Below, one piece after another: positions 10,067-62,853 of a stretch of 64,000 bases of DNA. The position numbers and the translations under genes are program-made. The stretch's first letter is position 1, and the number at the start of each line of letters is the position of its first letter. The DNA lies in contig NC_090340.1 of assembly GCF_035084215.1 (NCBI RefSeq), forward strand, positions 3,906,001-3,970,000. Reading direction: 5' to 3'. This DNA comes from Heptranchias perlo. Taxonomy: Eukaryota. The notes below the pieces were generated by a model that had not been told where the DNA came from, made no database searches, and was given only the letters and a program-made list of their open reading frames with translations.

Positions 10067-10121
10067 ATGTCTATGAGTTTGTCACTTTGGAGCATTTGTT
10101 CCTTGGGCATATTCTATCAAG
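10067..10121 (+). CDS. Gene 1 exon 1, signal peptide MSMSLSLWSICSLGIFYQ
   Basis: 55 nt, the same length and phase as the gene 2 and gene 3 leader exons; donor is AAG|GCAGGC (GC-AG intron). Confidence 0.6.
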
Positions 10122-13100
10122 GCAGGCTTTTATTTTTGTTGTTATCAATCAATTTTTCCTGAAAAAGAAACAGCATGAAGCCGATAATATATTTGAGGTA
10201 CAATCGGATATTGTTTCATGCTGGATTAATTTGAAGTATTTTTTATCATTTCCCTTGCCAAAGGGAAACATCAAGTTGAGAAAGGTGATGTTATTTTTGG
10301 TCATTCAATGAGGAAACAATTTCATCAGATGGAGAATAATTCTCCGCGTTAGGTACATTCAATTACTAATGTATCAATGGATTGGAATGAAAAACTTATT
10401 TTGGTGGTTCAGATCATCTTCCCTGTGTAAGAATTATTTAATCGTGTGGCTTCTTTTGTTGATAGTTGCTGTGGACATTTCAGGCAAATTGATTCCGGAT
10501 ATTACAAAAAAGAAGGCAGTAAGAGGTACGAACATTACCTTGAAATGTCCTTTTCCCTTCGATCTCAATCATTCAAACATGAAGGTTCACTGGTGGAGAG
10601 AGGGCAACTTTACCTTTCTGAAAGAAGACAGTAGAACACAGTTCCAAATAGAGAAAGGCTGCGCCTTTCTTCATCTCCTGAATGTGACTGTCTCGGACAA
10701 CGGGACGTATCGTTGTGCAATTAAAAATCAGAAGCAAACTGTTGGAAAAGGAACGCGTGTCGAAGTTGTTGTATATGGTAAGTATCAGTGGAACTGGAAA
10801 CTTGAAGAGTTTAGTTGCTGTCGATACTCAAACTACGTTTGACATGGAATTCCAATAAGGAAATGCCCTGTGTATAAAAGAGTACAGCTTTCTAGTTGTT
10901 TATAACGACACGCATTCAACAATATGGAAACTTTCCCACTTCCAGAGTCTCTGCAAAATGTGACAACTGACCTATATCAGCAATGTTATTGAATGTTATG
11001 TTCATCAAGGGAAGTAAATTCAAGGCTGAGAACTAAAATGCTTCTTTCCAATTTTAGCACTAAGTATCACTATGAAACACCTCGGGGTTATTTACAATGT
11101 TATAGATGTTTACAGGTCCAGTGGAGAGAAGAGGTTAGAAGAGGAAGATTCCCATTCCCTCGTTTAGACAGCGCGCTTCCCGCTTCTGCGAACCAGATAC
11201 AATTCCTGAATCGGTGGAACAGGGGTGACACACACGATAAATCAGGTGTCATAGTCCAGACCAAGGTTTAAACTGGATCCTTTACGTACAAATGAAGGAC
11301 ATGTTCTGGCTGTAACAACAGAACGCGTTCTGTACTATTTCAACGGTTTAAGCGCAGCATGGCCATTCGTACATCATAATATCAATAAAAAGAGGTCCAA
11401 CATTGAAAATAAATGTTGTTAAATTCAAAAGTGATACGTCAGTACTGCTGGCAATAAAATTGGATAATACCTGTAGATACAGTGAAGAAAAAAATAGTTT
11501 GAGTTCCAGTCAGGATAAACAATAATTACCGTTACAAATACGATGCCCCGTCACAGGCATTGATTAATTAATGAAAACAGAGTGTAGATAAGAGTACTGG
11601 CCAAATATTTTGCTTTATCTCTTTTTGATTATTACCATTTAGCTGTTCCCACTCCGCTGAAGATTGTCGCCATAACATCCGAAGCGGCTTCTTCCGCTTC
11701 TCTGCGACTGCAGTGCAGAACAACTCCTTTTTACCCGAAGGACTTTAATCTCATCTGGCAAAAAAATGGTACCGAAATCGTGACTGGAGTTGGAACTGAA
11801 CAACAGTCAAACACAGAGGGACTGTATGAAGTTATTAGCACCTTAGAAGAGACACATCCAATCGAGCGCGGCACAATTTACACCTGTCAAGTATATCACG
11901 ATTCAAACTCAATTCCAGCAAATGCCAGCTACACCGTTGGTAACGATGGTAATATTATTGCACACGTTCTACTTGTATCAATTTCTGTGTTTCTTTGCGC
12001 AGTAATTGAGTTTGCATCGCAGATAGTGGGTAAATACAAGAAAACGCGGAAAGTGTTTACTGCATTTGTTTGCATATCATTCTGTCACCTCCGAAGTCTG
12101 ATTTTATTCCAGCTCCCATCGATCGGGTGAAGATTCTCTTTCTGTTGGTTATTGGGATATGATGAGAAATAATTTGGACTCAAGCAACTTGGCTAATATT
12201 GGGCACCAGACCTCAGCATATTTTCCATAATATTTTGCGAACTGGCAAATATTATTGCAAGTTCACTGAGAAAGGGCACGGGTGATACCGGAAACCGAAC
12301 CATGCATCATTGGGATTGGAATCGTTAGTGAGGGTTGGAGGCATGGAGTGGCGGAATTGATGAATTTGACATTCCCGCAGCCATGACGCAATCCAAGGTA
12401 ATCCCGCATCATCAGATGCACAGTGCGGAGCCCTCGAAACTGCACTAAATATGGAATACTTAGGTTGTTCTTGTGGAAAGATGGAAAATGTGTTCGTGAG
12501 GATTTGTTCCGAAAGGCAATTCTAGCAAATTTGTAAATACGTCCCATTATCTGTATGCGTTCGCCTTCAATCAGCAATTGTTATTTAATGTTAAGTTTTT
12601 CAAGGAAAGTAGATTCAAGGCTGCGAACTAAAATGCTTCTTTCTAATTTTAGCACTAAGTTTACGTATAAAACATATTGGGGTCATTTGCAATGTTGTAG
12701 ATGTTTAAAGGACCAATGGAAGGAAGAGGATAAAGGAGGAAGATTCCCATTCCCTCATTTTGATGACGCGCTTCCTGTTTCTGCGATCCAGATAAAATTC
12801 CAGAATCGTCGGTCGGTGAAACAGGCAAGACACACACGATAAATCAGATGCCGTAGTCCAGACCGAGGTTTAAACTGGATCCTTTAGGTACAGATGAAGA
12901 AAATGTTCTCGAACAGCAGAACGCGTCCTGTACTATTCCAACTGTTTAGCACAGCATGGCGATTCGTGCACCATAAAAAGAGGCCCAATTTTGGAGAAAA
13001 AAAATTGTAAATACAACAGTGATACATCAGTACTGCTAGGGAGGAAATTGAGTAATAGAAAACACCCAAAACATATTTAATATTTTCCAACATGTCGCGA

Positions 13101-16100
13101 CCAGATGAATTTTTATCCCAATGAACTATACTCCCATCAATTTGTGGAGGATCATTCTGTGTGTTTTTTCCACCTTTTTACGGATTGCTGCTAATTATCC
13201 AAACTACGCGTTATTTGAAACACGTTGTTGCCGATTTCATGCAAATCAGATGAATAAAGAGTTAATGAAATGGACCTGCTGATGCTTTATGTATTGTATT
13301 AGTGTATTCTCATAGGATTATTTTTGTAAGTGATGTTTGTGATATATAAACTTACGTATATTCATTTTAATTTCCAAATTTTCTAATTTTGTTTAGATAT
13401 CAATCTGATAGATGTTGACTCTGCATTCAGTGTTGCTCTGATCGCTAAATGTGCCGGGATTGCAGTGGTAATTCTACTGTTGACAGTTATGATTGTGAAG
13501 GGACTTCAATTCATTACATCCAAAGGTATGAAGCATCCCGACTTTCTTGATCATTGACTATCTGTTAGCAAATTATAACAAATTCCTTAAATTAGAAATT
13601 AACGTTATAATTGATACCGATACACGCAGGCAGAGACTGTATAACATCAGTATCACATCATTGGTAGTGGAGCTGCCCAGTTGTACAAACTATCCGAGGG
13701 ATTAATGTTTAAATATTTCTGAACGTTCATCCCCATATCTGTTTGCTTCAACTCAAATATTAGATCATAACGCGACATTAGCAGTCTTGTAGCTGGAGTT
13801 TGCTGAACTCTGTTGGTGTAGGTCTAAATCTCGTGCAGTGAATGTCTTGGGTGCATGAAGTTTACACAGCTTCATCACAAGGGACATAACACAATGGAAG
13901 CGCGCGTTTCTAGAAACCTGGAGATAAAGCGTGATACTTGGGGCCCTATTAGATCCTGCGAACTAAACTAATTGCATTTGATTTCGTGGTTCTTGTGAAA
14001 CACCGAAATATTGAGCAATTCTTGGCGATTCATTTCGATTTTATTTCCCGCCAGGTACAACGAGAAATCCAGTGAATTCTGCTCGGCATGAAGATCGGGT
14101 AACGTCACCTTACTTTTCACTCTACTTTGTTTCAAAAGGACTGAGATTTTGCACTCAAATGAGACCACGTTAAGAATGTTTCCTGCTTGGATTTATTCTG
14201 TGCTTCTAGCTGTTCTGTAATAAAAAAAGCAATTTGTGCTAAAAAAAATAACATTGTAATATAGAATAACGAACGGTGTGTTTAGAAACTCTCGCATCGA
14301 TTTTAAAAGGACAGATATATTATAGAATCATAGAATCATAGAAGTTACAACATGGAAACAGGCCCTTCGGCCCAACATGTCCATGTCGCCCAGTTTATAC
14401 CACTAAGCTAGTCCCAATTGCCTGCACTTGGCCCATATCCCTCGATACCCATCTTCCCCATGTAACTGTCCAAATGCTTTTTAAAAGACAAAATTGTACC
14501 CGCCTCTACTACTGCCTCTGGCAGCTCGTTCCAGACACTCACCACCCTTTGAGTGAAAAAATTGCCCCTCTGGATCCTTTTGTATCTCTCCCCTCTCACC
14601 TTAAATCTGTGCCCCCTCGTTATAGACTCCCCTACCTTTGGGAAAAGATTTTGACTATCGACCTTATCTATGCCCCTCATTATTTTATAGACTTCTATAA
14701 GATCACCCCTTAACCTCCTACTCTCCAGGGAATAAAGTCCCAGTCTGTCTAACCTCTCCCTGTAAGTCAAACCATCAAGTCCCGGTAGCATCCTAGTAAA
14801 TCTTTTCTGCACTCTTTCTAGTTTAATAATATCCTTTCTATAATAGGGTGACCAGAACTGTACACAGTACTCCAAGTGTGGCCTCACCAATGCCCTGTAC
14901 AACTTCAACAAGACATCCCAACTCCTGCATTCAATGTTCTGACCAATGAAACCAAGCATGCTGAATGCCTTCTTCACCACCCTATCCACCTGTGACTCCA
15001 CTTTCAAGGAGCTATGAATCTGTACTCCCAGATCTCTTTGTTCTATAACTCTCCCCAACGCCCTACCATTAACGGAGTAGGTCCTGGCCCGATTCGATCT
15101 ACCAAAATGCATCACCTCACATTTATCTAAATTAAACTCCATCTGCCATTCATCGGCCCACTGGCCCAATTTATCAAGATCCCGTTGCAATCCTAGATAA
15201 CCTTCTTCACTGTCCACAATGCCACCAATCTTGCCTCCTAAATTCTCATCCAAATCATTAATATAAATAACAAATAACAGCGGACCCAGCACCGATCCCT
15301 GAGGCACACCGCTGGACATAGGCATCCAGTTTGAAAAACAACCCTCGACAACCACCCTCTGTCTTCTGTCGTCAAGCCAATTTTGTATCCAATTGGCTAC
15401 CTCACCTTGGATCCCATGAGATTTAACCTTATGTAACAACCTACCATGCGGTACCTTGTCAAATGCTTTGCTGAAGTCCATGTAGACCACGTCTACTGCA
15501 CAGTCCTCATCTATCTTCTTGGTTACCCCTTCAAAAAACTCAATCAAATTCGTGAGACATGATTTTCCTCTCACAAAACCATGCTGACTGTTCCTAATTA
15601 GTCCCTGCCTCTCCAAATGCCTGTAGATCCTGTCCCTCAGAATACCCTCTAACAACTTACCCACTACAGATGTCAGGCTCACTGGTCTGTAGTTCCCAGG
15701 CTTTTCCCTGCCGCCCTTCTTAAACAAAGGCACAACATTTGCTACCCTCCAATCTTCAGGCACCTCACCTGTCGCGGTGGATGATTCAAATATCTCTGCT
15801 AGGGGACCCGCAATTTCCTCCCTAACCTCCCATAACGTCCTGGGATACATTTCATCAGGTCCCGGAGATTTATCTACCTTGATGCGCGTTAAGACTTCCA
15901 GCACCTCCCTCTCTGTAATATGTACACTCCTCAAGACATCACTATTTATTTCCCCAAGTTCCCTAACATCCATGCCTTTCTCAACCGTAAATACCGATGT
16001 GAAATATTCATTCAGGATCTCACCCATCTCTTGTGGTTCCGCACTTAGATGACCTTGTTGATCCTTAAGAGGCCCTACTCTCTCCCTAGTTACCCTTTTG

Positions 16101-19100
16101 CCCTTTATGTATTTGTAGAAGCTCTTTGGATTCACCTTTGCCTGATCTGCCAAAGCAATCTCATATCCCCTTTTTGCCCTCCTGATTTCTCTCTTAACTC
16201 TACTCCGGCAATCTCTATACTCTTCAAGGGATCCACTTGATCCCAGCTGCCTATGCATGTCATATGCCTCCTTCTTATTTTTGACTAGTGCCTCAATCTC
16301 CCGAGTCATCCAAGGTTCCCTACTTCTACCAGCCTTGCCCTTCACTTTATAAGGAATGTGCTTACCCTGAACCCTGGTTAACACACTTTTGAAAGCCTCC
16401 CACTTACCAGACGTCCCTTTGCCTGCCAACAGACTCTCCCAATCAACTTCTGAAAGTTCCTGTCTAATACCATCAAAATTGGCCTTTCCCCAATTTAGAA
16501 TTTTAACTTCTCTTAACTTCTCCATAGCTATCTTAAAACTAATGGAATTATGATCACTGGTCCCAAAGTGATCCCTCACTAACACTTCTGTCACCTGCCC
16601 TTCCTTATTTCCCAAGAGGAGGTCAAGTTTTGCCCCCTCTCTAGTCGGGCCATCCACATACTGAATGAGAAATTCCTCCTGAATACACTCAACAAATTTC
16701 TCTCCATCCAAGCCCCTAATGCTATGGCTGTCCCAGTCAATGTTGGGAAAGTTAAAGTCCCCTACTATTACCACCCTATTTTTCTTGCAGCTGTCTGTAA
16801 TCTCCTTACATATTTGCTCCTCAATTTCCCGTTGACTATTTGGGGGTCTGTAGTACAATCCTATCAAAGTGATCTCTCCCTTCTTATTTTTCAGTTCTAC
16901 CCATATGGACTCAGTGGGCGAACCCTCGGATATATCCCCTCTCACTACTGCCGTGATGTTCTCCCTAATCAAGAACGCAACTCCCCCTCCTCTCTTACCT
17001 CCTGCTCTATCTTTCCTATAGCATCTGTACCCTGGAACATTGAGCTGCCAGTCCTGCCCCTCCCTGCCCCTCCCTTAGCCATGTACCCATCCATGCCCTG
17101 AGTTCATCTGCCTTGCCCATCAGACTTCTTGCATTGAAATAAATGCAGTTTAATCTAGACTTCCCTTGGTCTTTGCCCTGCTTTCTCAGACCATCTGTCC
17201 GGTCATGTTCTGTACACTCTCCCTTACTGCCTTTTGTTTCTGTCACCACTTTATTTCCCACTGACTTCCTGCATCGGTTCCCATCCCCCTGCCACATTAG
17301 TTTAAACCCTCCCCAACAGCACTGGCAAACACTCCCCCTAGGACATTGGTTCCAGTCCTGCCCAGATGCAGACCGTCCAATTTGTACTGGTCCCACCTCC
17401 CCCAGAACCGGTTCCAATGGCCCAGGAATTTGAATCCCTCCAGCTTGCACCATCTCTCAAGCCACGTATTCATCTTAGCTATCCTGTCATTCCTACTCTG
17501 ACTAACCCGTGGCACTGGTAGCAATCCTGAGATTACTACCTTTGAGGTCCTACTCGTTAGTTTAACTCCTAACTCCCTAAATTCAGCTTGTAGGACCTCA
17601 TCCTGTTTTTTACCTATATCGTTGGTGCCTATATGCACCACGACAACTGGCTGTTCACCCTCCCCCTCCAGAATGTCCTGCAGCCGCTCCGAGACATCCT
17701 TGACCCTTGCACCAGGGAGGCAACATACCATCCTGGCGTCTCGGTTGCGTCCGCAGAAACGCCTGTCTATTCCCCTTACAATCGAGTCCCCTATCACTAT
17801 AGCTCTGCCACTCTTTTTCCTGCCCTCCTGTGCAGCAGAGCCAGCCACGGTGCCATGAACCTGGCCACTGCCACCTTCCCCTGGTGAGCCATCTCCGCCA
17901 ACAGTATCCAAAACGGTATACCTGTTTTGGAGGGAGATGACCGCAGGGGACCCCTGCACTGCCTTCCTACTCTTCCTCTGTCTGTTGGTCACCCATTCAC
18001 AATCTCCCTCAGTAATTTTTATCTGCGGTGTGACCAACTCACTGAACGTGCTATCCACGACTTTCTCAGCATCGCGGATGCTCCAAAGTGAGTCCATCCG
18101 CAGCTCCAGAGCCGTCAAGCGGTCAAACAATAGCTGCAGCTGGACACACTTCCCGCAGGTGAAGGAATCAGGGATACAGGAAGGAGCCCTGAATTCCCAC
18201 ATCCCACAAGAGGAACATGACACGGCGCTGGGATCTCCTGCCATGACTTAACCCTTAAATTAGCTTAAGAACAACTACAATGTCAAGAGAAAAAAAAAGG
18301 AAAGAAAAACTACTTACCACTCCCTTTAAGGAGTTTACTCCTTTAAATTGTTCTCAATTTAGAGAATGTTAACTACACTAGGGACCTTGATTCACTAAAA
18401 AATAAACGCTACTTCCTATAAGACCTGCAGACCTTCCCTTTCCTTTTACTTCAGTTACTGTAGATAAGGAGAAATACTCACCTGAACCTACTCACCAATC
18501 AGGTGCCTCCCCTGTGTCGCGTCCCGATCTGATTCCTGACGTCACTTCGAACTCGGTCGCAGCTCCGCTCGGCTCCTCTCAGCTGTTCTCAGCGCTCTGA
18601 AATCCCGCCTTTTATCCGACGCTCCCTCCGCTCGGCTCGGCTCCTCTCAGCTGTTCTCAGCGCTCTGAAATCCCGCCTTTTATCGGACGCTCCCTCCGCT
18701 CGGCTCGGCTCCTCTCAGCTGTTCTCAGCGCTCTGAAATCCCGCCTTTTATCGGACGCTCCCTCCGCTCGGCTCGGCTCCTCTCAGCTGTTCTCAGCGCT
18801 CTGAAATCCCGCCTTTTATCGGACGCTCCCTCCGCTCGGCTCGGCTCCTCTCAGCTGTTCTCAGCGCTCTGAAATCCCGCCTTTTATCGGACGCTCCCTC
18901 CGCTCGGCTCGGCTCCTCTCAGCGCTCTGAAATCCCGCCTTTTATCGGAAGCTCCCTCCGCTCGGCTCGGCTCCTCTCAGCTGTTCTCAGCGCTCTGAAA
19001 TCCCGCCTTTTATCGGACGCTCCCTCCGCTCGGCTCGGCTCCTCTCAGCTTCTACCTTCTTAAAAATTGCCTTAATATTTAAAGCACAACAGTAGTATTG

Positions 19101-22100
19101 AGCATTACAAAACGTTGTTCGTTTCTTTGTGCTAACCAGGTGATGGCATGGAGATGTAAACTCCCAACATTGATCCTTGTTCATCAATTGACAACAGAAC
19201 TCCATAGTCGATTTGGACCTTCCTAAACAGTCCATTATTGTTACCATACTTCCACTCCGCCTTTCTGCGCTGCGTCCGTTTAGACCGGTGACCTAACCTG
19301 CCTTCTCCCAGGTGACCGAACCCAAAGGGTATAGGCCGTGCAGCCAATCTGCGGTTATCTTTCATAAGCTAGTGGCCTCAAACAGTGTCATATTAGAGGC
19401 TGTTCCCGCCCATAGTTCCAAAAGTGGAGGCGTGGAAGTTGGATCAAGTTGCTGTTAGAGCACACATTTCTTTATTATTCAGTCTCGGGATCTGGGTTTC
19501 GTTGGCAAGGCCGATATTTATTGCCCATTCCCTAGTTATCCTGAGAAGGTGGTGGTGGGCTTTCTTCTTGAACCGCTTTAGAAATTAAGTGGCTTGCTCG
19601 GCCACTTCAGAGGACAGTTAAGAGTTAACCACTTTGTTGTACGTCTGGATTTACTAGTAGGCTGGACCGGGTAAGGATGGCAGGTTTCCTTCCCTAAAGG
19701 ATATTATAGAACCAGCTGGGTTCTTACGACAATTCAACAGATTCCTGTCACTGTCACTGATACCAGCTTTTTTCCCAAATATTTTAAACTAAATTCAAGT
19801 TCTCAAACTATTATTTAAACTCAGCTGCTCAGGATTATTATTCCAGGCCCCTGGATATGGTGACTAAAGTTGAAAAAATATTCTGGAATTATATGCGCTT
19901 CACCATTTTAGGAATAATGTGACATCGCTTTCTACCTTCCTTATAAACATCGAGTCAGCATGAGATGTTTGCTCGGCTCAGGGCCATGGACCCTCCCCTA
20001 AGCGGGCATTGTGCCCCCAGTGACATGCAAATCAATATCCAATTATATGATAGTCTCACCAGAGAGCTCTAACAATAAGACCCGTACTTTGTCTGCGTTG
20101 TATACTGTGATCTGGCACATGCCCACATGTGCGTTCCTACTAGATTCCAAATGATAAGGATTGCGATGAATCCTGGTCAATTATGGACCAACAAGTTATT
20201 CAATTTTATATGGCATACATGAATCATAGATTCATAGAAAATGTACGGCACAGAAGGAGGCAATTCGGCCCATCGTGTCCGCGCTGGCTGAGAAACGAAC
20301 CACACAGCCTAATCCCACTTTTCCGTATTTGGTCCAGAGCCCTGCAGGTCTCGGCTCTTCAGGTGCACATCGAGGTAATTTTTAAATGAGTTGAAGGTTT
20401 CTGCCTCTACCACCCTCTCAGGCAATGAGTTCCAGACCGCCCCCCACCACCCCCCCCCCCCCCACCATCTGGGTGAAAAAATCCTCATTTCTGCTCTAAT
20501 CCTGCCACCAATCACTTAAAATCTATGATCTCTGGTTATTCACCCTCTGCTAAGGGAATTATCAACTCACTCTAGGCCCCTCATAATTTTGTACAGCCCA
20601 CCACTATCACCCCCAGCCTCCTCTGTTCCAAAGAAAACAACCCAAGCCTACCGAATCTGTCATCATAGCTAAAATTCTCCAGCCCTGGCAACATCCTCGT
20701 AAATCTCCCCTGTACCCTCGATAGCGCAATTACATCCTTCGTGTAATGTGGTGACCAGAACTGTGCGTACTTCTCAAGCTGTGGCCTAACTAGTGTTTTA
20801 TACAGTTCCAGCATAACATCCCTGCTTTTATATTCTATGCTTTGGCTAATAAAGAAAGCATTCCATATGCCTTCTTAACCACTTCATCTACCTGTCCTAC
20901 TACTTTCAGGGATCTGCGGACATGCACTCCAAGGACCCTCGCTTCTTCTACAACTCTTAGTATCCTCCCATTTATTGTTTATTCCCTTGCCTTGTTTGCT
21001 TTCCACAAATGCATCACCTCACACTTCTCCAGATTGAACTCCATTTGCCACCTTTCTGCCCACCTGACCAGTCCATTGAAATCTTCTTGCAGTCTACAGC
21101 TTTCCGCCTCACTATCAACCAAACGACCTATCTTTTTGTCAACCGCAAATTTCTTAATCATGCCCTCTATGGTAAATTCCAAATCGTTGATGTATACCAC
21201 GAAAAGCAAAGGACCTTGTACCGAGCCCCGCGGCACCCCACTGGAAACAGCCTTCCAGTCGCAAAAACACCCGTCGACAATTACCCTTTGCTACCTGCCA
21301 CTGACCCAATTTTAGATCCAATTTGCCACATTCCCTTGCATCCCATGGGCCTTTACTAATGATTATGTTTATCACAGCAAGATTGACCAAGTTTCTATAA
21401 CTACTCCTATATTATGAAACGAAGATCCATTATATGGGCCGACGGCCTGGAATTTCCTTTCATAGATCCAACGCGGAGGTTAGATTCGATAACGGTTACA
21501 TTCCCGTGCTCATTCTGCCAAAGTTGTTAGGCTCCAATTTACTGTCAATCTCATTTCAATACGCTCCACCGTAAAATGGGAGTGAATCACCTTATACACT
21601 CGGGGCCCAAGCAAAGCACCGAGCTGAAACGATATATTCCTTCTTTAAGTAAAAAAAAGTAAGGTTTCAATTCATTCATCCATCATAAGTACGTCATTGT
21701 GTGTAAAGCGATTCGGAATGTCCTGCGATTCTGAAAGGCGCTATACAATGCAAAATCATCCTTTATTGATGAACGTTAAGCACTATGTTTAGGCACGCAC
21801 AATCGGGGAAACTTTTCAAGTTGTAAGGTGACTTCTCTTTGTGCTATAAAATCCATGAAAAGAAACATCGAACGGAGTGCCGGTCGCAGTAATCATACAT
21901 GAAATAAAACGCTCGGTAAATTACAATAGAACACCGGAAAATCACGTTGTTTCCTACTGCGCCTCAACAACAGGTAGTAATTTTAAGAGAGCCCCTGGGC
22001 AAGTGCAACTGCAGGAAACTTGCGTATTAGTCCCTGTAAATTGGGACTGGGGCCATATTTATGGTCGGAGATTTGTTCAGTTGGAGGTATTGATAGACAG

Positions 22101-24395
22101 TCGTAAAAGATCGAGTAAGTATGCACATCATGGTTACGCAAATAACAATGAAATAAATGATTAGTTAATCTGTGTTGTTGGTGTTGGCTAAAGTATCATT
22201 TCTGGGCTAGGACATCAGGAGAACTCGCCTGCTGTTTTTAAAATCTTGTGCTCGTATCTTTTAAGTGCACTTATAGGAAGCCTTGGTTTTTCGTCTCATC
22301 TGACAATGGGACAATGCAACACTCCCCGAGTACTGCACGTGAACGTCAACTGACATTATAGGATTAGCTTCTGCAGTGGTGGTTTAATGCACGACCTTCT
22401 GATAAGAGTGCTATAGCGGAGTAAAGAACGTTGGGCTGGAATTGATGTAATTTCCGTGGAAGATGCACATAAAGGCCGTTTACGCCATTTCTCACAGGTT
22501 TCTGTCGAAGTTACAGTTGACGGCTTAAATTGCCTCTGTACTTGATGCCTAGAGACATGCGTAACCTGGTTGCAAACCAATTACGTATTTAAAAATCGCA
22601 GAATTTTGGGCAAAAGTGAGTTATGTGCCTGACAACAATACGCCGACATCTCCTCGATCTTTTACGACTGTCTATCAATACCTCCAACTGAACAAATCTC
22701 CGACCATAAATATGGCCCCAGTCCCAATTTACAGGGACTAATACGCAAGTTTCCTGCAGTTGCACTTGCCCAGGGGCTCTCTTAAAATTACTACCTGTTG
22801 TTGAGGCGCAGTAGGAAACAACGTGATTTTCCGGTGTTCTATTGTAATTTACCGAGCGTTTTATTTCATGTATGATTACTGCGACCGGCACTCCGTTAGA
22901 TGTTTCTTTTCATGGATTTTATAGCACAAAGAGAAGTCACCTTACAACTTGAAAAGTTTCCCCGATTGTGCGTGCCTAAACATAGTGCTTAACGTTCATC
23001 AATAAAGGATGATTTTGCATTGTATAGCGCCTTTCAGAATCGCAGGACATTCCGAATCGCTTTACACACAATGACGTACTTATGATGGATGAATGAGTTG
23101 AAACCTTACTTTTTTTTACTTATTTATTTTGCTGCATAGAAACAGTATTTATGTTATACAAATAATTAATTTGCTATGAAACGCTTCGGGACATCCAGAC
23201 ATCCACAGTATCTGGACGCCTCTATGTAAATGCATTTTCTTCTTCCTCCGCCGCCCCACACTTGTCTGCGCTGAGGATTAATTTGCACAGCTGCCAATCG
23301 AAACGATCACGTTTCCCTTGTTTTGGATGCATCGGTATTTAACTTATTATCTATGTCAGAATGTATTTACTTGTTTCTTTACTCTCGTTTATTTATTAAT
23401 GTTTTAATTGAACTTTCATACGGGAGCGACAACATGTTTTTGTCCAGTTGTTGCACCCAACAACCTAAACTAAGGACGAAACTATTGAATTATGTGCCTC
23501 AATTTATTTATTTATATTTTTCATCCCGAACAAGGCAAAAATAATTCAACTTGTTTTATTAATATTTATAATGTAATTTCACACCAAATTGCAACTTGAA
23601 TGATTGAGTATAAAACAAATTACATTCTGAATTTATTACACTATTGTAATGAAGGAGGATGTGATTTATCTGAATAACAAAAATCGATTAATTCGCAGTG
23701 ACGCGTAAAACTCTTGTTCCTGGAAATTTAATAGTTGCCAAAATTCGCGGCTAACTTTCACAATATTAAAAATTGAAATTATTTAGTTTCTCAGTTGTTT
23801 ACCATTTTCTAAACCAGCGGCTCGGGGTTATTGATGCCTGGCGAGCGTTGGACCGCAGAAAGAAATAGTAAACTTCATTAACATCCACAGAACTAATAAT
23901 AAGGTCAATGCGACTATGCTGTCTGAATTGTCTATTAGATGCAAAGGCTTCATGAATCTTGAAACTCCAGAAAAAGCACCTCAATGAATGCTAAACATTG
24001 ACTTTCCAGAAAGAACGAGGGTCCACTGAGGAGAAGCTGACGTACGCTGCTCTGGATCTGATCGGCTCCAAGAAAACGTTCAATTCGAAGCAACATGAAG
24101 AGCGTACAGTGTATGCAAAGGTACAGTTGAGTTCACACAGGGAAATAATAATCATGCAAAAGAGTATACGTTTGCTTTTGAGATGATACTGAGAATTAAT
24201 TTGACTTCATTTTCATTTTTTTTTTGGAAGAAAATGACAACATTATTCTTAATTTTTGTTTTACACACCAAACAGGTCGCCGCTGATAGTCAATTGACTT
24301 ACGCTACTTTGAATTTGACTGGTTCCAAGAAAACGTCGAAACGTAAACAGAAAGAAACAAACCTAATATACGCAGCAGCGAAGACCAGCATCTAA
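10067..24395 (+). CDS. Gene 1: IgSF receptor, leader-V(J)-C1-TM-cytoplasmic ITIM/ITSM (SIRP/NKp30-like), 358 aa; exons 10067-10121, 10466-10777, 11643-11948, 13397-13525, 14055-14098, 24010-24120, 24276-24395
   Basis: Seven exons with AG acceptors and GT donors (one GC), intron phases 1,1,1,1,0,0, joining into a 1077-nt stop-free ORF with recognisable domains. Confidence 0.85.
10466..10777 (+). CDS. Gene 1 exon 2, VJ-type Ig V domain
   Basis: ITLKC, VHWWR, LHLLNVTVSDNGTYRC and J-like VGKGTRVEV; ttgatag| acceptor and G|GTAAGT donor. Confidence 0.92.
10976..11449 (+). repeat. Intronic direct repeat copy A (about 470 bp)
   Basis: Clearly similar to 12570-13037, e.g. shared CAAGGCTG.GAACTAAAATGCTTCTTTC and GGTTTAAACTGGATCCTTT. 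Confidence 0.9.
11643..11948 (+). CDS. Gene 1 exon 3, C1-set Ig domain
   Basis: LRLQCRTTPFYPKDFNLIWQKNG...GLYEVISTL...YTCQVYH; phase 1/1 splice sites. Confidence 0.92.
12570..13037 (+). repeat. Intronic direct repeat copy B
   Basis: Paralogous to 10976-11449; the two copies flank the C1 exon. Confidence 0.9.
13397..13525 (+). CDS. Gene 1 exon 4, stalk plus transmembrane (FSVALIAKCAGIAVVILLLTVMIV)
   Basis: tttgtttag| acceptor, AAG|GTATGA donor, hydrophobic helix, homologous to the TM exon at 50735-50848. Confidence 0.85.
14055..14098 (+). CDS. Gene 1 exon 5, short cytoplasmic exon GTTRNPVNSARHEDR
   Basis: Pyrimidine-rich acceptor ttttatttcccgccag|, donor CGG|GTAACG; its 44 nt supply exactly the phase 1 to phase 0 change the model needs. 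Confidence 0.7.
14408..17150 (-). pseudogene. CR1 ORF2 (APE endonuclease plus RT), defective
   Basis: 854-aa open stretch with GDFN, SDH, NYRPVSLTS and GVPQGSVLGP. FADD is missing, and the N-terminus (CIYFNARS) is in another frame and lacks AITET. Confidence 0.93.
17297..18244 (-). CDS. CR1 ORF1: CxxC/CxxC zinc finger, coiled coil, SGNH esterase domain
   Basis: CSSC...CGKC, VIGDSIVR, CLPGA, HIGTND, DGLHL; 315 aa uninterrupted. Confidence 0.9.
   Translation of the reverse strand: MAGDPSAVSCSSCGMWEFRAPSCIPDSFTCGKCVQLQLLFDRLTALELRMDSLWSIRDAEKVVDSTFSELVTPQIKITEGDCEWVTNRQRKSRKAVQGSPAVISLQNRYTVLDTVGGDGSPGEGGSGQVHGTVAGSAAQEGRKKSGRAIVIGDSIVRGIDRRFCGRNRDARMVCCLPGARVKDVSERLQDILEGEGEQPVVVVHIGTNDIGKKQDEVLQAEFRELGVKLTSRTSKVVISGLLPVPRVSQSRNDRIAKMNTWLERWCKLEGFKFLGHWNRFWGRWDQYKLDGLHLGRTGTNVLGGVFASAVGEGLN
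18562..19050 (-). repeat. 68-bp tandem monomer array in CR1 5' UTR (about 7 copies, one 58 bp)
   Basis: AATCCCGCC recurs at 18601, 18669, 18737, 18805, 18873, 18931 and 18999; units are nearly identical. Confidence 0.95.
19470..19860 (-). mobile_element. tRNA-headed SINE sharing its 3' tail with family B LINE
   Basis: Family B tail (ATTTATTGCCCAT...GAGAAGGTGGTGG) joined to a non-coding body and a degenerate head resembling 47656-47748. Confidence 0.6.
20221..21352 (-). mobile_element. 5'-truncated CR1 LINE
   Basis: ORFs 20581-20814 and 20979-21236; GAATCATAGA tail. Confidence 0.9.
21646..22115 (+). repeat. Left arm of 470-bp inverted repeat
   Basis: Reverse complement of 22653-23122; I find only two mismatches by eye. 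Confidence 0.95.
22165..22430 (-). mobile_element. Old Deu-domain SINE (SacSINE/AmnSINE-like)
   Basis: GGACATCAGGAGAACTCGCCTGCT...CGTCTCATCTGA...ACTCCCCGAGTACTGCAC resembles the reverse-strand Deu core (from recall). Confidence 0.5.
22653..23122 (-). repeat. Right arm of 470-bp inverted repeat
   Basis: ORFs 21877+ and 22589- share their first 80 aa. Confidence 0.95.
24010..24120 (+). CDS. Gene 1 exon 6, cytoplasmic (ITIM LTYAAL; ITSM TVYAK|V)
   Basis: actttccag| acceptor, AAG|GTACAG donor, phase 0/0. Confidence 0.8.
24276..24395 (+). CDS. Gene 1 exon 7, terminal cytoplasmic (ITIM LTYATL; LIYAAA)
   Basis: T-rich tract then aaacag|; paralogous to exon 6; TAA at 24393-24395. Confidence 0.78.
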   Translation, partial: VAADSQLTYATLNLTGSKKTSKRKQKETNLIYAAAKTSI

Positions 24396-24449
24396 TTGAG
24401 GCAAACACGGATACGTTGCAAAGATTCGAGGGATGTTTCAGTCACACGT

Positions 24450-27443: not shown

Positions 27444-27478
<35 letters not shown>

Positions 27479-43950: not shown

Positions 43951-46900
43951 ATATCACTTATTCACAAATCGAAAGTGTTGAATGAGATTGTTTTTGTTTA
44001 TTTTTATTGCTACATCGAATAAGGAAAAAATGTCTTTGACTCTGAATCGAATTCTGCCTGGAATCATTTCTTTCAACCCCCTGATTACTGAGGGGCCGCT
44101 CCCGACCCACCTTTTACCGCACTCCGAAGTCCAACATTAACTTTCCCAGAGTGGCTGGCAATTCAAACGTGGGGCACAACAATGAGATTGTCAGTATCTA
44201 TTAACAACTAGATCCAAGTACTAACACACAGACAGATATAAAGGACAGGGCGGGGGGCGCTGGAGGGCAGCCTGTGAAGACAAGTAGCTTGCAATGAAAT
44301 AATCAACTGCACAGAGAGGATTGAACAGGCTAAACACTAAACAACATTTTACTGCATAAAATAATAGATTTTATTTGCACTATGGATTCATTGTGGTTGC
44401 TAATAGATTTTATTTTCAGTGATAGATATATTTGCTCTGATAGATTTGATTTCGATTGATAGATTTGTTTCTGTGGGAAATAGATTTTAGATGTTGACAG
44501 ATGGCAATGGGTTTTTCAAGAATTGGATAAGGAACATTTACATGAAACAGAACGAAACTCCGTGCTACGAAGCCTGTGAGTGGAGCATCTGCTGTTCAAG
44601 CTCAGTCTGTGTCTCCAGTAAGATCTCGGCGGTGAAGGCAAAGTATCTCCCATGGATGCCAGTGCCAGAGTGGGAATCGTGATTCAAAAATTGATGGAGA
44701 AAATGGTTTGGAAGACACATTAGTGACACAAGATCATCTAAGGAAAAGAAGTTAACAAGGATCTGTAATCACCTCAGGTCACGTTGTGATAACTTTCTCA
44801 CTGGGGAGTGATGACATTTATGGATCTACGAATTGTTGAGATGCAGTTTAGGATGGAGACGAAGGTACTTTTATGACCGGAATGGGATCACTGTCAGAAA
44901 CCTCGAGAACATTCTGGATTAATTACATTTTGAACTCGGGGCTGAAATATTCCTGATCAAGCAGTTAGTGACTGATGAGTTTACAGTTTTCACCGAGCGA
45001 CAGGTTAGTTGAAGGAGGGTAGGGAGCTGTCGGCATCTGAGTGGAGTTGAGCTCCTGAAAATCAAATACCAGGTTGTATATGGGGATTTTAAGAGATCTA
45101 AGAGCAATAGTCGAGTGTTGAAAAGGATGGAGATAAAGTTAATTCGAACATTGAATAATTACTCCCGCAATTCCAATATGAAACTGCGACCTCGTCAGTC
45201 TGAAGTTCTAAAAAACAGCATGAGGTTCGGGATTATTCTCACATGAGGAATTATTGATAAACCGAACAAGATAAAGTGACATGGAAAGAGAGAAGACAAG
45301 GAGCAAGTGTGTGGGAGGGTTGAGGGGAGTGAAAAATAGAGAAGGATTGGACCTTGATCAATTTTTAAATATGAACGATTCGCCCATGGATGAGGCAGAT
45401 AGATAATGGGGTTCAGGATGGAGCGGTATTCCAGATTTGCCGATTTAAAAGCCATTGTCTCGGCCACAGTAGGAGCAGTGCGCGAAATTTTGATGTGAAG
45501 AAGGGTGTAAGATTTATTTACTTGGTGATATCAGTCCTAGATCTCCTGAATCAAAAGACATTAAAGGGAGACTCAGTTGAAGGTATCTGCGGCGAGTCCC
45601 ACTAGTGATCAAGGGGAATAAATGTAGAAAGAGTAAGAGGAGGTTAGAAGATTTTTTTTACGCAAAGGGTTATTAGAGCGTGGGGTAGAACCGCAGAAGG
45701 GCAATTGGCGGAAATCAAACACAGGGGTTCGGGGGGAATTACAATAATATTGATAGTTGCGGGGGGATGGCAGGGGACTGGAATGAGGTAGAGATCTCTT
45801 TCTGGGCTTAACCTTCTGGAATTTAACCGGAAAGTAAATGGACACGGAACACGGAGACAGTCAAATTTAGCGAGACTCTGCCGATGAATGGGTCACAGGT
45901 GGGTCACTCAATGAGGATTCATATTGCGCCAGCAAGGCTCCGAGTCGAGAGCGGAGATCCGTCGACTTCCTTGATCAGTGAGAAGTGGTAGAGGCGGATC
46001 TCTGCAACTGCAGAATATTGGGAGCTTGGTAAATTTGATACTACTTTGGCCCCTCTCTCTTTTAATTCGTGATATCGGAAACGGACGAAGACTTGAAATA
46101 ATTCACACAGAGCGAGAACCGGGGTCAGGACCGGAACATTATCTGGGAAATGAATTGAGTGAGTGAGCTCTGGTACAGGACAACTGCACACGTTTTGGAC
46201 CTTAACAACGAGTCCCAGACTGGAACTGAGACAATAATTTCCTTCATGCTTTTGTATTAATTTATCACTCTGTCAGTGAAAGCATATTATAGAATACTCT
46301 CTCCCTATTAGCAACGCAGAAGCCTATTTAGAACGTCGTTCTAAATCATAGTGAAGCATAAGCAGAAATAGACACCGAGGGCTTTAAGAGATCCCACGGG
46401 ACGGGTTCGGTTTAACTCGGACTTAAATTCATTTCAATGCCCAGACATGCGGCCTTCCCGTCACCGAGTGCTGGATAAAGACAAGAACTAAATAAATATT
46501 GCCATGGACTGTTTCAAGCAAATCAAGCGTTCTTTATTAATACTAAAATGGCGGTAAAATTTCCCTCTTAAAGGGACTCTGCAGATGCTCCAGGCTCTCC
46601 CTTCTCGGCGTCTGTTGTTTCCATTCTCTAATATAATATACGGGTAGTGATTTCAACTCAATTCCTTTAACTCCTTTCCAGTGCCGCTAACTCCTGTGAA
46701 GATTACCCGCCTGCACTCTCCGTCTCTCACACTCCTCTGCACAACGGCTGTTTTTTTCCCCCGAGGAGTTGAACCTAACTTGGTATGAAAATGGCCCCAA
46801 AATTACATCTGGGATAAACTTGGTAGAAACACGGAGCGAAGAGGGATTGTATCAAGTTTCCAGCTCCTTGATCTCTGTGTATCTGCCGCGTGCCCCATCC

Positions 46901-47655
46901 CTCTCTGCTGGCTCCAGCCAACTCCAGCTGCACGGTTCGTGATCCGGGTAAGAGACCCACCTGATCAGCACTGCAGTAAGCTGTATCTGTGTTAAATACA
47001 GGAGCCATTCAGGGCTTTTCTGTCACCACTAATCCGCACCAGAATATTGTCAATGCAGTGCGTTTGAAGGGGCTGAATATGCTCATTGCAATATCACAAA
47101 GCATTTGAGGCGGCCACTCACATTGGTCACCATGCAAGATGGAGTCTTGCGCAATTGAACGGCGGATCCATGGTCAAAATGTAAAAATGAACCATACTTT
47201 CGAAACACAGTATCTGACGTAACACACTGAGCGGGGAACCCCATCCCAACTGCCCAGTTCTTCAACTACATGGGCAGGTTCTCAATTGTCTGCTACTGGA
47301 GGCGTCCATTAGCGATCGGTGTCAGGATTGCACTTCTTGAGAAATGTCAATGATCTGGATGAAGGCGTCCACAAGTTCACTGATGGTACAACTATATGTG
47401 CTAAAGTCAGAACCATTAAGGAGAAAACATTTACAATCGGATCGAGATGCGATCGGGGAATCGGCCTGTATCTGGCAGATGCCAATTAATGCAGATAAAT
47501 GTAGTCTAATACTTGTGGGCAGGTTTAATACCAAGCATTGTGCACAGTGCTAGGCTCTGAATTAAAGTCTGTTGAGGGGCAAAGATTATTGGGTGTTCGT
47601 GTCTGAATCTCCCAAATTCCACGACAAATGCCGAGAGATGATAACCAAAGCAGTA

Positions 47656-50734: not shown

Positions 50735-50848
50735 CTGACGGGAACAGTACATCCCTCTACCCCCTGGTGTCGGGGTGTGCAGCAGGCGGGTTAATAATTC
50801 TAGTGCTGGTAATTCTCGTCAAGCGATGCAATTTAGTCAGAACTGAAG
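50735..50848 (+). pseudogene. Gene 2 TM exon (ADGNSTSLYPLVSGCAAGGLIILVLVILVKRCNLVRTE), uncharged TM
   Basis: Intact ccctttcag| and AAG|GTAAGA sites, phase 1/1, open frame. Confidence 0.85.
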
Positions 50849-52930: not shown

Positions 52931-52967
52931 TCACAAGCTTTCGGAGATTATCCCCTTCGTCAGGTGA
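52931..52967 (-). ncRNA. Minimal hammerhead ribozyme motif
   Basis: TCAC-CTGACGA-A-GGGGA(TAA)TCTCC-GAAA-GC-TT-GTGA on the minus strand. Confidence 0.72.
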
Positions 52968-53292: not shown

Positions 53293-53329
53293 TCACCTGA
53301 CGAAGGGGATCATCTCCGAAAGCTTGTGA
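53293..53329 (+). ncRNA. Minimal hammerhead ribozyme motif
   Basis: TCAC-CTGACGA-A-GGGGA(TCA)TCTCC-GAAA-GC-TT-GTGA. Confidence 0.72.
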
Positions 53330-58238: not shown

Positions 58239-58256
58239 TGACGTAAAAGTGAAACC
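58239..58256 (+). promoter_or_regulatory. Overlapping CRE-like (TGACGTAA) and IRF-E (AAAAGTGAAACC) upstream of gene 3
   Basis: Motifs lie about 150 bp before the ATG; CCAAT at 58206-58210. Confidence 0.45.
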
Positions 58257-58400
58257 AGTGCATTGAATTGCCGCTTCAGATATCTTATGGAGCGTCTCAT
58301 TGCAACACACTCACCGCCAGATTATCTTCTGATCTCTGAGTCCCACGCACCCTTCAGTGTTACCAGAAACGAGTGATGAAGTTCATCGCCGTTGCTCAGA

Positions 58401-58455
58401 ATGTCTGCGCTTGATATGCTGCTGTACCTCGCAGCCCTGGCCATTATTTACACAG
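58401..58455 (+). CDS. Gene 3 exon 1, signal peptide MSALDMLLYLAALAIIYT
   Basis: Hydrophobic leader, CAG|GT donor. Confidence 0.75.
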
Positions 58456-61400
58456 GTTTTTGTATACGTGCCTTTTAAATATTAAAGTGTGAATAATAAG
58501 TCCATTAGCAGTATGGAGGCAGCTTCTCTTAAATGTTTATTGCAGTTTACTCATTTCCTTTCGTTCTAATTCTGCCGCATTATTTCTTCCCTTTTAATCC
58601 TCACGATCACTATTCCCGACTGTAACCTGTGCTTGTGTTTATTTCTGACAGTTATTAATGGGACCGCTCTCACAGTGACTCAGTTCCCCGCCCGCGTGAC
58701 TGCGGTGAAAGGTACAAATGTCTCCATTTATTGCTTTTTCGCGCTTTTGGATCGCAACGCATTGGTGGATGTTTACTGGCGGAGAGCCGGCCAGGACGGG
58801 ATTTTGGATTCGAGTGCAGACAAAAGGAAAACATTTACACCATTGAAGAAAGAATCTTCCGAGTTTCACCTGCTGAATGTAGGTTTCCAGGAATCTGGAG
58901 TCTATTATTGCAGCATCAGAGATTGGAGAGGAAAGATTTCCAACGGGAATGGGACTGACATTATTGTGTATGGTGAGTATCGCTAACGGAACTTCGTAAA
59001 ATTCTATGGGTATAGATTGGAGAATATTTAACAAAGATCAGAAATGTATTTTCTGACAGGACTTTTGATGTTTCTCTCAGTTCGGTGCGGTGCGGCTCCT
59101 TTCCACCTATTTGCAGTGAATCCTGTGAGTTTACACAGAGCAGCACCGATTACCCTGCACGGGGCAGTGGAATTCAGATTATCTGACTTCAGTCAATCGT
59201 TGTTCTCTTATCCCGTATAATTTATATAAATCTGTTTTACCTTTTTTTCATTAATTCTCTGGAAGTGGACATCGCTGGCACCGTCGGCATTTATTGTCCA
59301 TTCCTAGTTACCAAGATGGCGGTGGGTCTGCTCCTTGAACCACTGCAGTCCATGTAGTGAAGGTGCTCCCACAGTGCTGTTAGGTAGGGAGTTACAGGAT
59401 TTTGACTCAGCGATGATAAAGCAAGGAAAATATATGTCCATGTGAGCATGATGTGTGACTTGGAGGGGGGGATCTTGGAGGTGATGGCGTTCCCATGCAC
59501 CTGCTGCCCTTGTCCTTCTTGGTGGCGGAGGCTTCGGGTTTGAGAGCTGCTGTCGAAGCAGCCTTGGCGAGTTGCTTCCGTGCATACTGTAGATGGTGCG
59601 CCGGTGGTGGACGGTATATAAGGTGGTGAAATAAGTGCCGATCAAGCAGACTGTTTTTGTTCAGGATATTGTTGAGCTTCTTGACTGTTGTAGCTGCGCC
59701 ATCCAGGCAAGTGGAGAATATTCCATCAAACTTCTGACTTGTCGGTGGCGGTGCCGCTTTGGGAAGTTAGGAGGTGAGTTACTCGCCGAGGCAGACCCAG
59801 CGTCTGACCTGTTCGAGGAGCCGAAGCATTTATGTGGCCATTTATATCACATATTTGCAAATCGATAGTGTTGAATGAGATTGTTTGTGTTTACTTTTAT
59901 ACCTATATCGAATAAGAAAAATGTGTCTTCGATTCTGAACAGAATCCTGCTTGGAATCACTTTCTTCAATCCTCTAATCATCGAGGGACCGCTCCCGACC
60001 CACTTTTTACCGCACTCCAAAGACCAACAGTAACTCTCCCCGAGTGCTTGCCAATTCAAACGTGGGACACAACAGTGAGATTGTCAATATCTATCGCCAA
60101 ATAGATACAAGTACTAACACACAGACATATAAAAAGGACAGGGGGTGGGGGGTGTAGAGGAGAACACGACAAGGCGAGGAGCGAGCAAAGAAAAATCAAC
60201 TGGACAGAGAGGATTGACAGGCTAAACACTGAACAACATTTTACTGCATAAAACAATATATTTTATTTACACTTTGGATTCATTGTGCTTGCTAATAGAT
60301 TTGATTTACAGAGATAGATAAATTAGCTCTGATAGATTTGTTATCGATTGATAGATTTGTTTATATGGGAAATAGATTTTAGATGTTGACAGGTGGGAAT
60401 GGGTTTTTCAAGCATTGGATAAGGAACATTTACATGAAACAGAACTATGTGCCGCGAGGCCTGTGAGTGGATCATTTGCTGTTCAAGCTCATTCTGTGTC
60501 TCCAGCAAGATCTCGGCGGTGAAGCCAAAGTATCTCCCATGGATCCCGGTGCCAGAGTGGTAATCGTGATTCAAAAAAGGGATGGAGCAAATGGTTTGGA
60601 AGACACATTAGTGACACAAGATCATCGAAGGAAAAGAAGTTAACAAGGATCTGTAATCATCACCTGCAGGTCACGTGGAGATAACTTTCTCACTGGGGAG
60701 TGATGACATTTAGTGGATCTACCAATTGTTGCGATGCAGTTTGGGATGCAGACGAAGGTACTTTTATGACCGGAATGGGATCACTGTCATATACCTCGAA
60801 AAAAATATGGATTAATTACATTTTGAACTCGGGGCTGAAATATTCCTGATCACTCAGTTGGTGACTGATGAGTTTACTGTTCTCACCGAGCGACAGGTTA
60901 GTTGAGGGAGGGGCCGAGCTGTGGGCATCTGAAAGGAGTTGAGATCCTGAAAATCAAATACCGGCTTGTAAAATGGGATTTTAATCGATCTAAATGCAAA
61001 AGTCGAGTGTTGAATAGGATGGAGATAAAGTTAATACGAACATTGAATAATTACTCCCGCAATTCTAATATCAAACTTTAACCTCGTCAGTCTGAAGTTC
61101 GAACAAACAGCATGAGGTTCAGGATTATTCTCAAATGAGGAATTGTTGATAAACCGAACAAGATAAAGTGACATGGAAAGAGAGAAGACAAGGAGCGAGT
61201 GTGTGGGAGCGTTGGGAGGGAGTGAAAAATACAGAAGGATTGGACCTTGATCATTTTTTAAATATGATCGATTGGCCCATGGATGATGCAGATAGATAAT
61301 GGGGTTTAGGATGGAACGGAATTCCACATTTGCCTATTTAAAAGCCATTGTCTCGGCCACAGGAGGAGCAGTGCGCGAAATTTTGATGTGAATGAGAGGG

Positions 61401-62853
61401 TGTAAGATTTATTTCCTTGGTGATATCCGTCCTAGATCTCCTGAGTCAAAAGAAATTAAAGTGAGACCCAGTAGACGGGATCTCCGACGAGTCCCACTGG
61501 TGATCAAGGGGAATAAATGTAGAAAGAGTAAAAGGATTTTCGAAGATTTGTTTCACTCAAAGGGTTATTAGAGCGTGGGGTAGATCGGCAGAAGGGTTAT
61601 TGAAGGAAATCAAACACAGGGATTAGGGGGGAATTACATTAATATTAATGCGGGGGTGGGCAGAGTACAGCCCTGAGGTAGAGAACTCTTTCTGAGCTTA
61701 AACTTCTCTAATTTAACCGGGAAGTAAATGGACACGGAACACGGAGACAGTAAAATTCAGCGAGACTCTGCCGATGAATGGGTCACAGATGGGTCACTCA
61801 ATGAGGATTCATATTGCGCCAGCAAGGATCCCAGTCGGAAACTGAGATCCGTCGACTTACTTGATCCTTAAGAAGTGGTGGATACGGATCTCTGTAACTG
61901 CAGAATATTGGGAGGTTGGTAAATTTGATACTACTTTGGCGCCTCTCCCTTTTAATTCGTGATATCGGAAACGAACAAAGACTTGAAATAATTCACACAG
62001 AGCGAGAACCGGGGTCAGGACTGGAACATTATCTGGGGAATGAATCGAGTGAGTGAGCTCTGGTACAGGACAACTGGACGCGTTTTAGACCTAAACAACG
62101 AGTCCCAGACTGGAACAGAGACAATAATTTCCTTCATGCTTTTGTATTAATTTATCACTCAGTCAGCGAAACCATATTATAGAATACTGTCTCCCTTTTA
62201 TCAACGCAGAAACCGATTTAGAACGTAGGCCTAAATCACAGTGAAACACCAGCAGAAATAGACACCGCGAGATTGAAGAGATCCCACGGGACTGTTTCGG
62301 TTTAACTCGGACTTAAATTCATTTCAGTGCCAAGACATGGGGCCTTCCCGTCACCGAGTGCTGGATAAAGACAAGAACGAAATAAATATCGCCATGTTTT
62401 GTTTCAAGCAAATCAAGCGTTCGTTATTAATTCTAATATGGCGGTAAAATTTCCCTCTTAAAGGGACTCTGCAGATGCTCCATGCTCTCCCTTCTCGCCG
62501 TCTGTTCTTTCCTTTGTCCAATGTAATATACGAGTAGTGATTTCAACTCAATTCCTTTATCTCCTTTCCAGTGCCGCCAACTCCTGTGAAGATTACCCGT
62601 CTGCACTCTCCGTCTCTCACACTCCTCTGTACAACGGCCGTTTTTTTCCCCGAGGAGTTAAACCTCACTTGGTATCAAAATGGCTCCAAGATTACATCTG
62701 GGATAAACTTGGTGGAAACACGGAGCGAAGATGGATTGTATCAAGTTTCCAGCTCCCTCATCTCTGAGCAGAGTGGGACGGTTTATATCTGCGAGGTGTC
62801 CCATGCCTCTCTCCCGGTTCCAGCCAACGCCAGCTACACGGTTCGTGATCCGG
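58401..62853 (+). CDS. Gene 3 (3'-partial): V(J)-C1 IgSF receptor; exons 58401-58455, 58652-58972, 62572-62853
   Basis: Canonical phase-1 GT-AG introns and an open frame. By colinearity with gene 2 the TM exon is expected about 0.6 kb past the window end. Confidence 0.88.
58652..58972 (+). CDS. Gene 3 exon 2, VJ-type V domain
   Basis: VTQFP...VSIYC...VYWRR...ESGVYYC...GNGTDIIV; G|GTGAGT donor. Confidence 0.93.
59250..59845 (-). mobile_element. Older family B LINE fragment
   Basis: Paralog of 43340-43950. Confidence 0.85.
62572..62853 (+). CDS. Gene 3 exon 3, C1-set domain
   Basis: LTLLCTTAVFFPEELNLTWYQNG...DGLYQVSSSL...YICEVSH; G|GTAAGA donor. Confidence 0.93.

Follow-up and report, generated by a model that had tools for sequence, protein, structure and literature searches.

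We analysed a 64,000-nucleotide stretch of the genome of the shark Heptranchias perlo (G000:C18:3906001-3970000, hereafter the window), which an earlier interpretation, the sequence-only reading, had taken for a tandem of three V-C1-transmembrane (TM) immune receptor genes with an ectodomain resembling an antigen-receptor chain. We found that two of these genes (1 and 3) look intact, whereas gene 2, lying between them, is a pseudogene. With a probability of roughly three in four, genes 1 and 3 are inhibitory representatives of paired receptors, inhibitory and activating, that are encoded in the germline by an old multigene family of cartilaginous fish.

Two intact-looking V-C1 genes and a pseudogene

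Gene 1 comprises 7 exons on the + strand (10067-24395 of the window) that join into a single open frame of 358 amino acids, encoding a leader, a V domain, a C1 domain, a TM segment and, in three exons, a cytoplasmic tail. The leader exon (10067-10121), homologous to the leaders of the paralogues P0001 and P0002, ends in a GC donor. It is followed by a V exon (10466-10777; Pfam V-set, E 4.6e-11), whose short domain measures 55 amino acids from Cys to Cys, ends in a degenerate J-like G strand and lacks a flanking recombination signal sequence (RSS), and by a C1-set exon (11643-11948; PF07654, E 2.3e-12). The TM exon (13397-13525), identified by tblastn with P0004, P0007 and P0008, encodes one Lys near its outer end, approximately at the site of the activating arginine, where P0004 has Gly. 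A hydrophobic read-through past the C1 donor (11951) was considered as the TM segment and dropped in favour of this conserved exon. A short cytoplasmic exon (14055-14098) is proposed from splice sites and frame, and a similar segment occurs in P0007 and P0018. The sequence-only reading ended the gene at the TM and overlooked two exons further downstream. The first (24010-24120; 55% to the P0004 tail) carries an immunoreceptor tyrosine-based inhibitory motif (ITIM), LTYAAL, and a motif resembling an immunoreceptor tyrosine-based switch motif (ITSM), TVYAKV, which spans the splice; the last coding exon (24276-24395), a partial duplicate of the first (81% over 42 nt), supplies a further ITIM, LTYATL, together with the fourth tyrosine and the stop codon.

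Gene 3, also on the + strand, has a leader exon (58401-58455), a V exon (58652-58972; 58 amino acids from Cys to Cys, a GxGTxIxV G strand and no RSS) and a C1-set exon (62572-62853; E 1.2e-12). Its V exon scores slightly below the 26-bit Pfam V-set cut-off (25.7 bits, E 1.4e-5); Pfam nonetheless supports the V-set and C1-set assignments proposed for both genes. The TM exon that had been announced after each C1 lies within the window for genes 1 and 2 and just past its end for gene 3 (64310-64423 in continued window numbering, + strand; locus L021). Two tyrosine-motif exons follow on the same strand, one ending at 67674 and the other at 67815-67964, with the motifs PSYAAI, TVYAQ, LTYASL and AEYAAI. 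Genes 1 and 3 thus each possess two tail exons with four ITIM- or ITSM-like tyrosine motifs, a layout also present in proteins of other sharks, and the V and C1 exons of both have AG/GT ends and are in phase 1 throughout. The two genes share 41 of 93 aligned residues in C1 and 31 of 99 in V, which bears out the strong V divergence noted before; it is plausible that the two V domains would bind different ligands.

Gene 2, on the same strand, is a copy (88%) derived from the gene 3 type. Its leader exon (42607-42661) and its V remnant (42862-43063) have both lost their donors to mutation, and V lacks its first Cys and its C-strand Trp owing to a 117-bp deletion. The C1 remnant (46682-46947) is frameshifted by indels of +1 and -17 bp. 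A TM exon is retained (50735-50848), and a search for tail exons found none.

A family of candidate paired receptors on one contig

Searching the genome with the C1 domain of gene 1 gave 130 matches when 150 of 256 candidates were scored, with 103 on the window's own contig, C18. The V domain of gene 3, the query from which all family V counts derive, gave 91 matches, 90 of them on C18. Once fragments had been merged, 89 V matches remained, of which 86 are followed by a C1 no more than 15 kb downstream. These V-C1 pairs, at least 86 in number and 69 of them without a stop or fragment flag, form two clusters on C18, at 2.7-6.0 Mb (56) and 14.5-15.6 Mb (29), with 1 more at 19.0 Mb. A family of several dozen predicted genes is a safe estimate from these numbers, although some pairs may be assembly duplicates. 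The proposal of a poorly described, expanding chondrichthyan family was therefore sound and, with about 100 C1 and 89 V matches on C18 and relatives in sharks, rays and chimaera, understated. A dispersed V copy with five stops lies on another chromosome (G000:C1:103491459-103491761, L115).

The family appears confined to cartilaginous fish at close range. Chondrichthyan proteins made up 31 of the 32 relatives in one search and 9 of 10 divergent representatives, Callorhinchus among them, in another; the named close relatives belong only to sharks, rays and chimaera, and a further search added, beyond this group, only weak unrelated matches. Distant bony-fish relatives are possible, since of the 694 proteins with E 1e-10 or better the listing comprised the best 150. 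In P0015, an automatic model from Hemiscyllium, one unit of the gene 1 type is fused to one of the gene 3 type, which suggests that the two neighbours stand in the same order in a distant shark. The automatic names of family members are scattered over SIRP-, tapasin-, B7-H6-, MHC II- and Ig lambda-like proteins, so that the family has been hidden in databases; an ESM Atlas look-up returned generic Ig names only.

The paired-receptor reading is carried by the exon chain, the four tyrosine motifs per tail, the tandem clusters with their pseudogenes, and paralogues (P0001, P0002, P0003 and P0006) whose TM segment bears an arginine close to the outer end and is followed by a short tail. A contig from run X1 running from the V end through C1 to the TM start without introns belongs to one such arginine-type paralogue (38 differences over 294 nt); its RNA status was guessed by the tool, the run is one sample, and the junction residues were compared with P0001 by eye. 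For the gene 1 subfamily, pairwise dN/dS comes to 0.77 in V and 0.60 in C1 (5 genes), and within the V domain to 0.93 on the front face and 0.57 on the back (7 genes).

By analogy with known receptors, the V domain would bind a ligand on another cell or a microbe, upon which Src-family kinases would phosphorylate the ITIMs and ITSMs, SHP-1 and SHP-2 would be recruited and activation would be damped. The arginine-type members would pair with a dimer bearing immunoreceptor tyrosine-based activation motifs and promote activation; this partner would be FcR-gamma or CD3-zeta rather than DAP12, because the arginine lies near the outer TM end. The C1 domain would be a rigid stalk and no chain-pairing module; a two-copy complex prediction for the P0002 ectodomain, run without an alignment, scored 0.00 and provides no evidence for or against pairing. 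We guess that expression would be on myeloid or natural killer (NK)-like leukocytes, and the family would turn over by birth-and-death duplication.

Several points weigh against this reading. Firstly, the TM classes of the 54 aligned family proteins (21 with ITIMs only, 7 with a TM Arg or Lys and no ITIM, 2 with both, 11 with neither and 13 without a parsed TM) come from gene models built automatically and from a simple pattern by which some arginines are missed, and the combination of ITIMs and a TM Lys in gene 1 itself is left unexplained by a simple pair model. Secondly, the spliced transcript that had been called for came to light only as the paralogue contig; runs X2 and X3 gave nothing, the V, TM and leader exons had no coverage, and none was seen for gene 1 or gene 3 itself. 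Thirdly, the leader donor, GT in 7 of 7 other paralogues, is GC in gene 1 and otherwise only in its near-identical copy, so that gene 1, a putatively active gene, may splice poorly and its transcript may be impaired. Fourthly, among the 9 locus pairs presumed to be duplicates, identity is 99.3-99.9% in 8, suggesting that the gene count is inflated by recent duplication or uncollapsed haplotypes. Fifthly, no dN/dS above 1 was established, the value of 2.3 in the gene 3 subfamily coming from 3 sequences with a dS of 0.02. Finally, the ligand, cell type and signalling proposed here are modelled on SIRP, LILR and NKp30 biology.

V domain, trees and ancestry

Both intact-looking genes have a germline VJ in a single exon, with a split leader, followed by C1. 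As had been stated, RSS are absent: scans of the window gave none, and not one of the 33 family V exons that were parsed has an RSS at its 3' end, whereas the same scan picked one up in 7 of the 13 V exons parsed as controls from elsewhere in the genome. RSS-like matches near three V loci were dismissed because they sit at the V match's 5' end. The family therefore shows neither the RSS after V nor the separate J of rearranging genes for Ig or the T-cell receptor (TCR). Its G strand follows the consensus N-G-x-G-[ST]-x-L-x-V. Gene 3 conforms to it, whereas the motif quoted for gene 1 fits only with a register shift of two and with Arg replacing the second Gly, so that the J-like strand claimed for both holds without reserve for gene 3 alone. 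GxG occurs in 47-51 of 54 family rows, preceded by N in 36 and K in 8 of the 54 and by the canonical F/W in none. The V Cys-Cys spacing is 53-59 in the family (45 of the 54 rows parsed), against 64-73 in Ig, TCR and UrIg2 and 63-69 in NKp30-like and SIRP-like domains.

A tree of 62 C1 rows, in which the labels of the Ig, TCR and MHC outgroup exons are our own, unites the family's 21 rows in a single clade (100/96). Chimaera rows are interspersed in this clade, placing the family before the chimaera split on this phylogenetic evidence. The tree does not settle a sister, and approximately unbiased (AU) tests rejected none of SIRP-like, TCR, Ig/TCR, B7-H6-like or MHC domains in that position. SIRP is represented in our trees by lungfish SIRP-like rows only; P0146, a turtle protein named SIRP-alpha, falls beside the B7-H6-like gene and did not serve as a SIRP reference. 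The suggested V and C1 phylogenies thus yielded a single C1 clade and a V domain beside B7-type domains, but no exclusive sister. An AlphaFold model of the paralogue P0002 reached a predicted local distance difference test score of 87.5. The explanations that compete here mostly concern ancestry, not function, and are compatible with a paired-receptor function.

Descent from a V-C1 gene of the B7, B7-H6 or butyrophilin type is possible, if tentative; the proteins would then be co-signalling ligands or bidirectional receptors, with a GxG that is either convergent or old and shared. In the V tree (43 rows), the family and B7-type V domains are separated from Ig/TCR, UrIg2, NKp30-like and SIRP-like V domains (95/86), and the same split obtains a Shimodaira-Hasegawa-like approximate likelihood-ratio support of 98 under a mixture model with two long rows removed. 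Long branches may nevertheless attract, and AU tests on V rejected no alternative (p 0.14-0.20). The P0002 model superposes on both domains of B7-H6 (NCR3LG1) as a V-C1 rod over 182 residues (Z 15.2, root-mean-square deviation (rmsd) 3.0), its top structural match, with ICOS-L, B7-H3, BTN2A1 and PD-L2 tied within about 1 Z. B7-H6 differs from the family in its lack of a J-like motif and its longer V (71), and a separate B7-H6-like gene with a J-less V and C-like exons stands in this genome on C12, at a distance of about 140 kb from KCNJ11. The pairing of TM Arg with ITIM members is typical of receptors and not of ligands.

It is rather unlikely that the family is the true chondrichthyan SIRP orthologue, having moved from the NSFL1C-linked locus or predating it, with one C1 and a role in binding CD47-like self markers. 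The likeness to SIRP-alpha/beta is broad: a V with a J-like G strand, a C1-set stalk, an inhibitory tail with four tyrosines (as in SIRP-alpha), activating partners with a charged TM, and clustered genes; many automatic names also read SIRP-like. SIRP-alpha and SIRP-gamma rank high in a PDB sequence-profile search, SIRP-alpha standing 4th behind three multi-domain antibody-type chains with a best stretch covering both domains. When the lungfish SIRP-like protein was searched in the genome, family C1 exons were its top matches and made up 19 of 26 (best E 2.7e-6), and constraining the family to join SIRP-like C1 domains cost only 0.76 log-likelihood (p-AU 0.46). The family C1 profile, however, scores SIRP-like, IgH and B7-H6-like domains alike (43-48 bits), the single SIRP-like V groups with NKp30 on the opposite side of the V tree, and SIRP-gamma superposes on the P0002 model less closely than B7-H6 (Z 13.6, rmsd 5.8). 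SIRP is V-C1-C1, whereas each family gene has one C1 exon (a near-identical C1 repeat occurs in the skate model P0039), a shorter V and dozens of copies, and the TM Arg of arginine-type members sits near the outer end, unlike the central Lys of SIRP. NSFL1C linkage was not found: SEP-domain exons occur only on C22 and C3, neither on C18. No V, C1 or other Ig exon was found in the 170 kb that surround the SEP gene of C22 (150 kb searched by hidden Markov model, 20 kb by pattern), as would suit a SIRP gene that had moved.

That the family is a line of the pre-RAG antigen-receptor precursor, as the VJ-C1-TM layout had suggested, is improbable: a single-exon VJ, split leader, one C1 and a TM, all in phase 1, the frequent GxG, an age beyond the chimaera split, and the survival of a family plus Ig/TCR grouping in AU tests (p-AU 0.37 for C1, 0.20 for V) speak for it, but it is weakened because V is short, F/W is missing before GxG, V falls on the B7 side of its tree and the model is a B7-like rod, on which a TCR chain (Z 13.5, rmsd 10.6) and UrIg2 (13.4, 10.5) superpose poorly, although the elbow of a lone-chain model is uncertain. 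The description as antigen-receptor-chain-like accordingly stands for domain order only; V length, J motif, V tree, model geometry and chromosome point away from Ig and TCR.

Chromosomal context, look-alike loci and known families

The suggested synteny with the MHC paralogon or the SIRP locus did not materialise. No A2M-family (A2M, C3, C4 or C5), KCNJ or Wnt match was found on C18 with our small marker set, the 150 best-scoring C1-set and V-set matches, which would signal MHC or Ig/TCR linkage, all lie elsewhere, and 200 kb of flank read for synteny contained only an open reading frame (ORF) resembling a G protein-coupled receptor and repeats. C18 holds 5 of 19 classical cadherin tails, three of which we take to be CDH8, CDH11 and CDH5 in the human 16q21 order, an assignment that ESM Atlas did not confirm. 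With cadherin tails present and these markers absent, C18 is probably the homologue of human 16q and chicken 11, and no MHC paralogon.

Counterparts of other candidate relatives sit on other contigs: the B7-H6-like gene (L101-L103, G000:C12:29.11-29.14 Mb; one V and about seven C-like exons), an NKp30-like exon on C42 and UrIg2 on C1841. The family is therefore not B7-H6, NKp30 or UrIg2. Turtle, frog and wrasse proteins built like the C12 gene are automatically named SIRP or uncharacterised. Better precursor candidates than the window family are present in the same genome. An inverted pair of germline VJ-C1 genes (L170/L171 and L190-L192, G000:C11:54.19-54.37 Mb) has a long V with the motif YxCx6PPPx5GxG and falls outside the family in both the V and C1 trees. 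PMC11599192 gives this motif as the signature of CD28X; beyond that signature, the pair has a C1 exon, and one of its genes has a TM and an ITIM-like exon. These two genes could be those of PRARP, or else a CD28X relative equipped with C1. On C8 lie several V exons whose J-like end is already joined (L204 and L205, G000:C8:1.25-1.95 Mb), without RSS in the two that were read. They group with Ig/TCR V domains (91/91) and, not being rearranged, might stand nearer to antigen receptors than the family does. We also observed two C1 exons for which no V was found within about 15-20 kb (L173/L174, G000:C14:59.91 Mb) and a gene with a J-less V and C1 (L165/L160, G000:C11:48.13-48.14 Mb).

Within the window itself, a gene 1 intron contains, on the minus strand (14408-18247), an element resembling a long interspersed nuclear element, with an 888-amino-acid endonuclease/reverse-transcriptase ORF and a 316-amino-acid ORF1-like frame, then a 68-bp tandem repeat (18562-19050) and, at 21646-23122, a 470-bp inverted repeat of 99.6% identity with 537 bp of spacing. 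Broken ORFs resembling pieces of retroviral env, integrase and RNase H lie on the minus strand at 1328-4709.

The PRARP/VJC1 genes (Fu 2019, Ohta 2019), reportedly non-rearranging VJ-C1-TM genes with ITIM/ITSM, like the family, are reported as a gene pair and no large paired family; the C11 inverted pair fits this description better than the family does. NKp30 (NCR3) resembles the family in its germline VJ with a GNGT-type G strand and in the TM Arg of activating members, but lacks C1. According to PMC2442602, NITRs form a large clustered family of VJ paired receptors, mostly inhibitory with some activating, under birth-and-death evolution; they differ in that their second domain is a six-cysteine I domain, where the family has a two-cysteine C1, and they are reported in bony fish only. 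UrIg and UrIg2, likewise non-rearranging shark VJ genes followed by C1, have three or more C1 domains, form disulfide-linked dimers, are linked to MHC or Ig/TCR and have no ITIM tail, as far as the accessible text of PMC12227049 goes, which makes no mention of SIRP, PRARP or ITIM. NKp30, PRARP, UrIg and tetrapod VJ-C1 genes are named in the part of PMC10751288 that could be consulted, the family not among them. We found no description of the family in the literature searched, whose scope left outside most subscription papers, the key VJ-C1 papers and the elephant shark supplement. The family is real and large and apparently undescribed; its function may be likened to that of SIRP, LILR or NITR, but by domain make-up it belongs neither to SIRP nor to NITR, and it resembles an innate receptor family more than a forebear of antibodies.

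Since a mass innate receptor family has used a germline VJ-C1-TM layout, that layout alone is no mark of an antigen-receptor precursor. More speculatively, and with the odds clearly against it, the family could be the missing shark NK or myeloid inhibitory/activating system, a counterpart of KIR, Ly49 and NITR, whose VJ-C1 scaffold, more than 400 million years old, would link B7/SIRP-type genes to the pre-RAG ancestor, and some of whose members would recognise MHC class I or further markers of self. With its conservation from chimaera to rays, the family is a direct candidate for the cartilaginous-fish leukocyte receptors that tell self from altered self.

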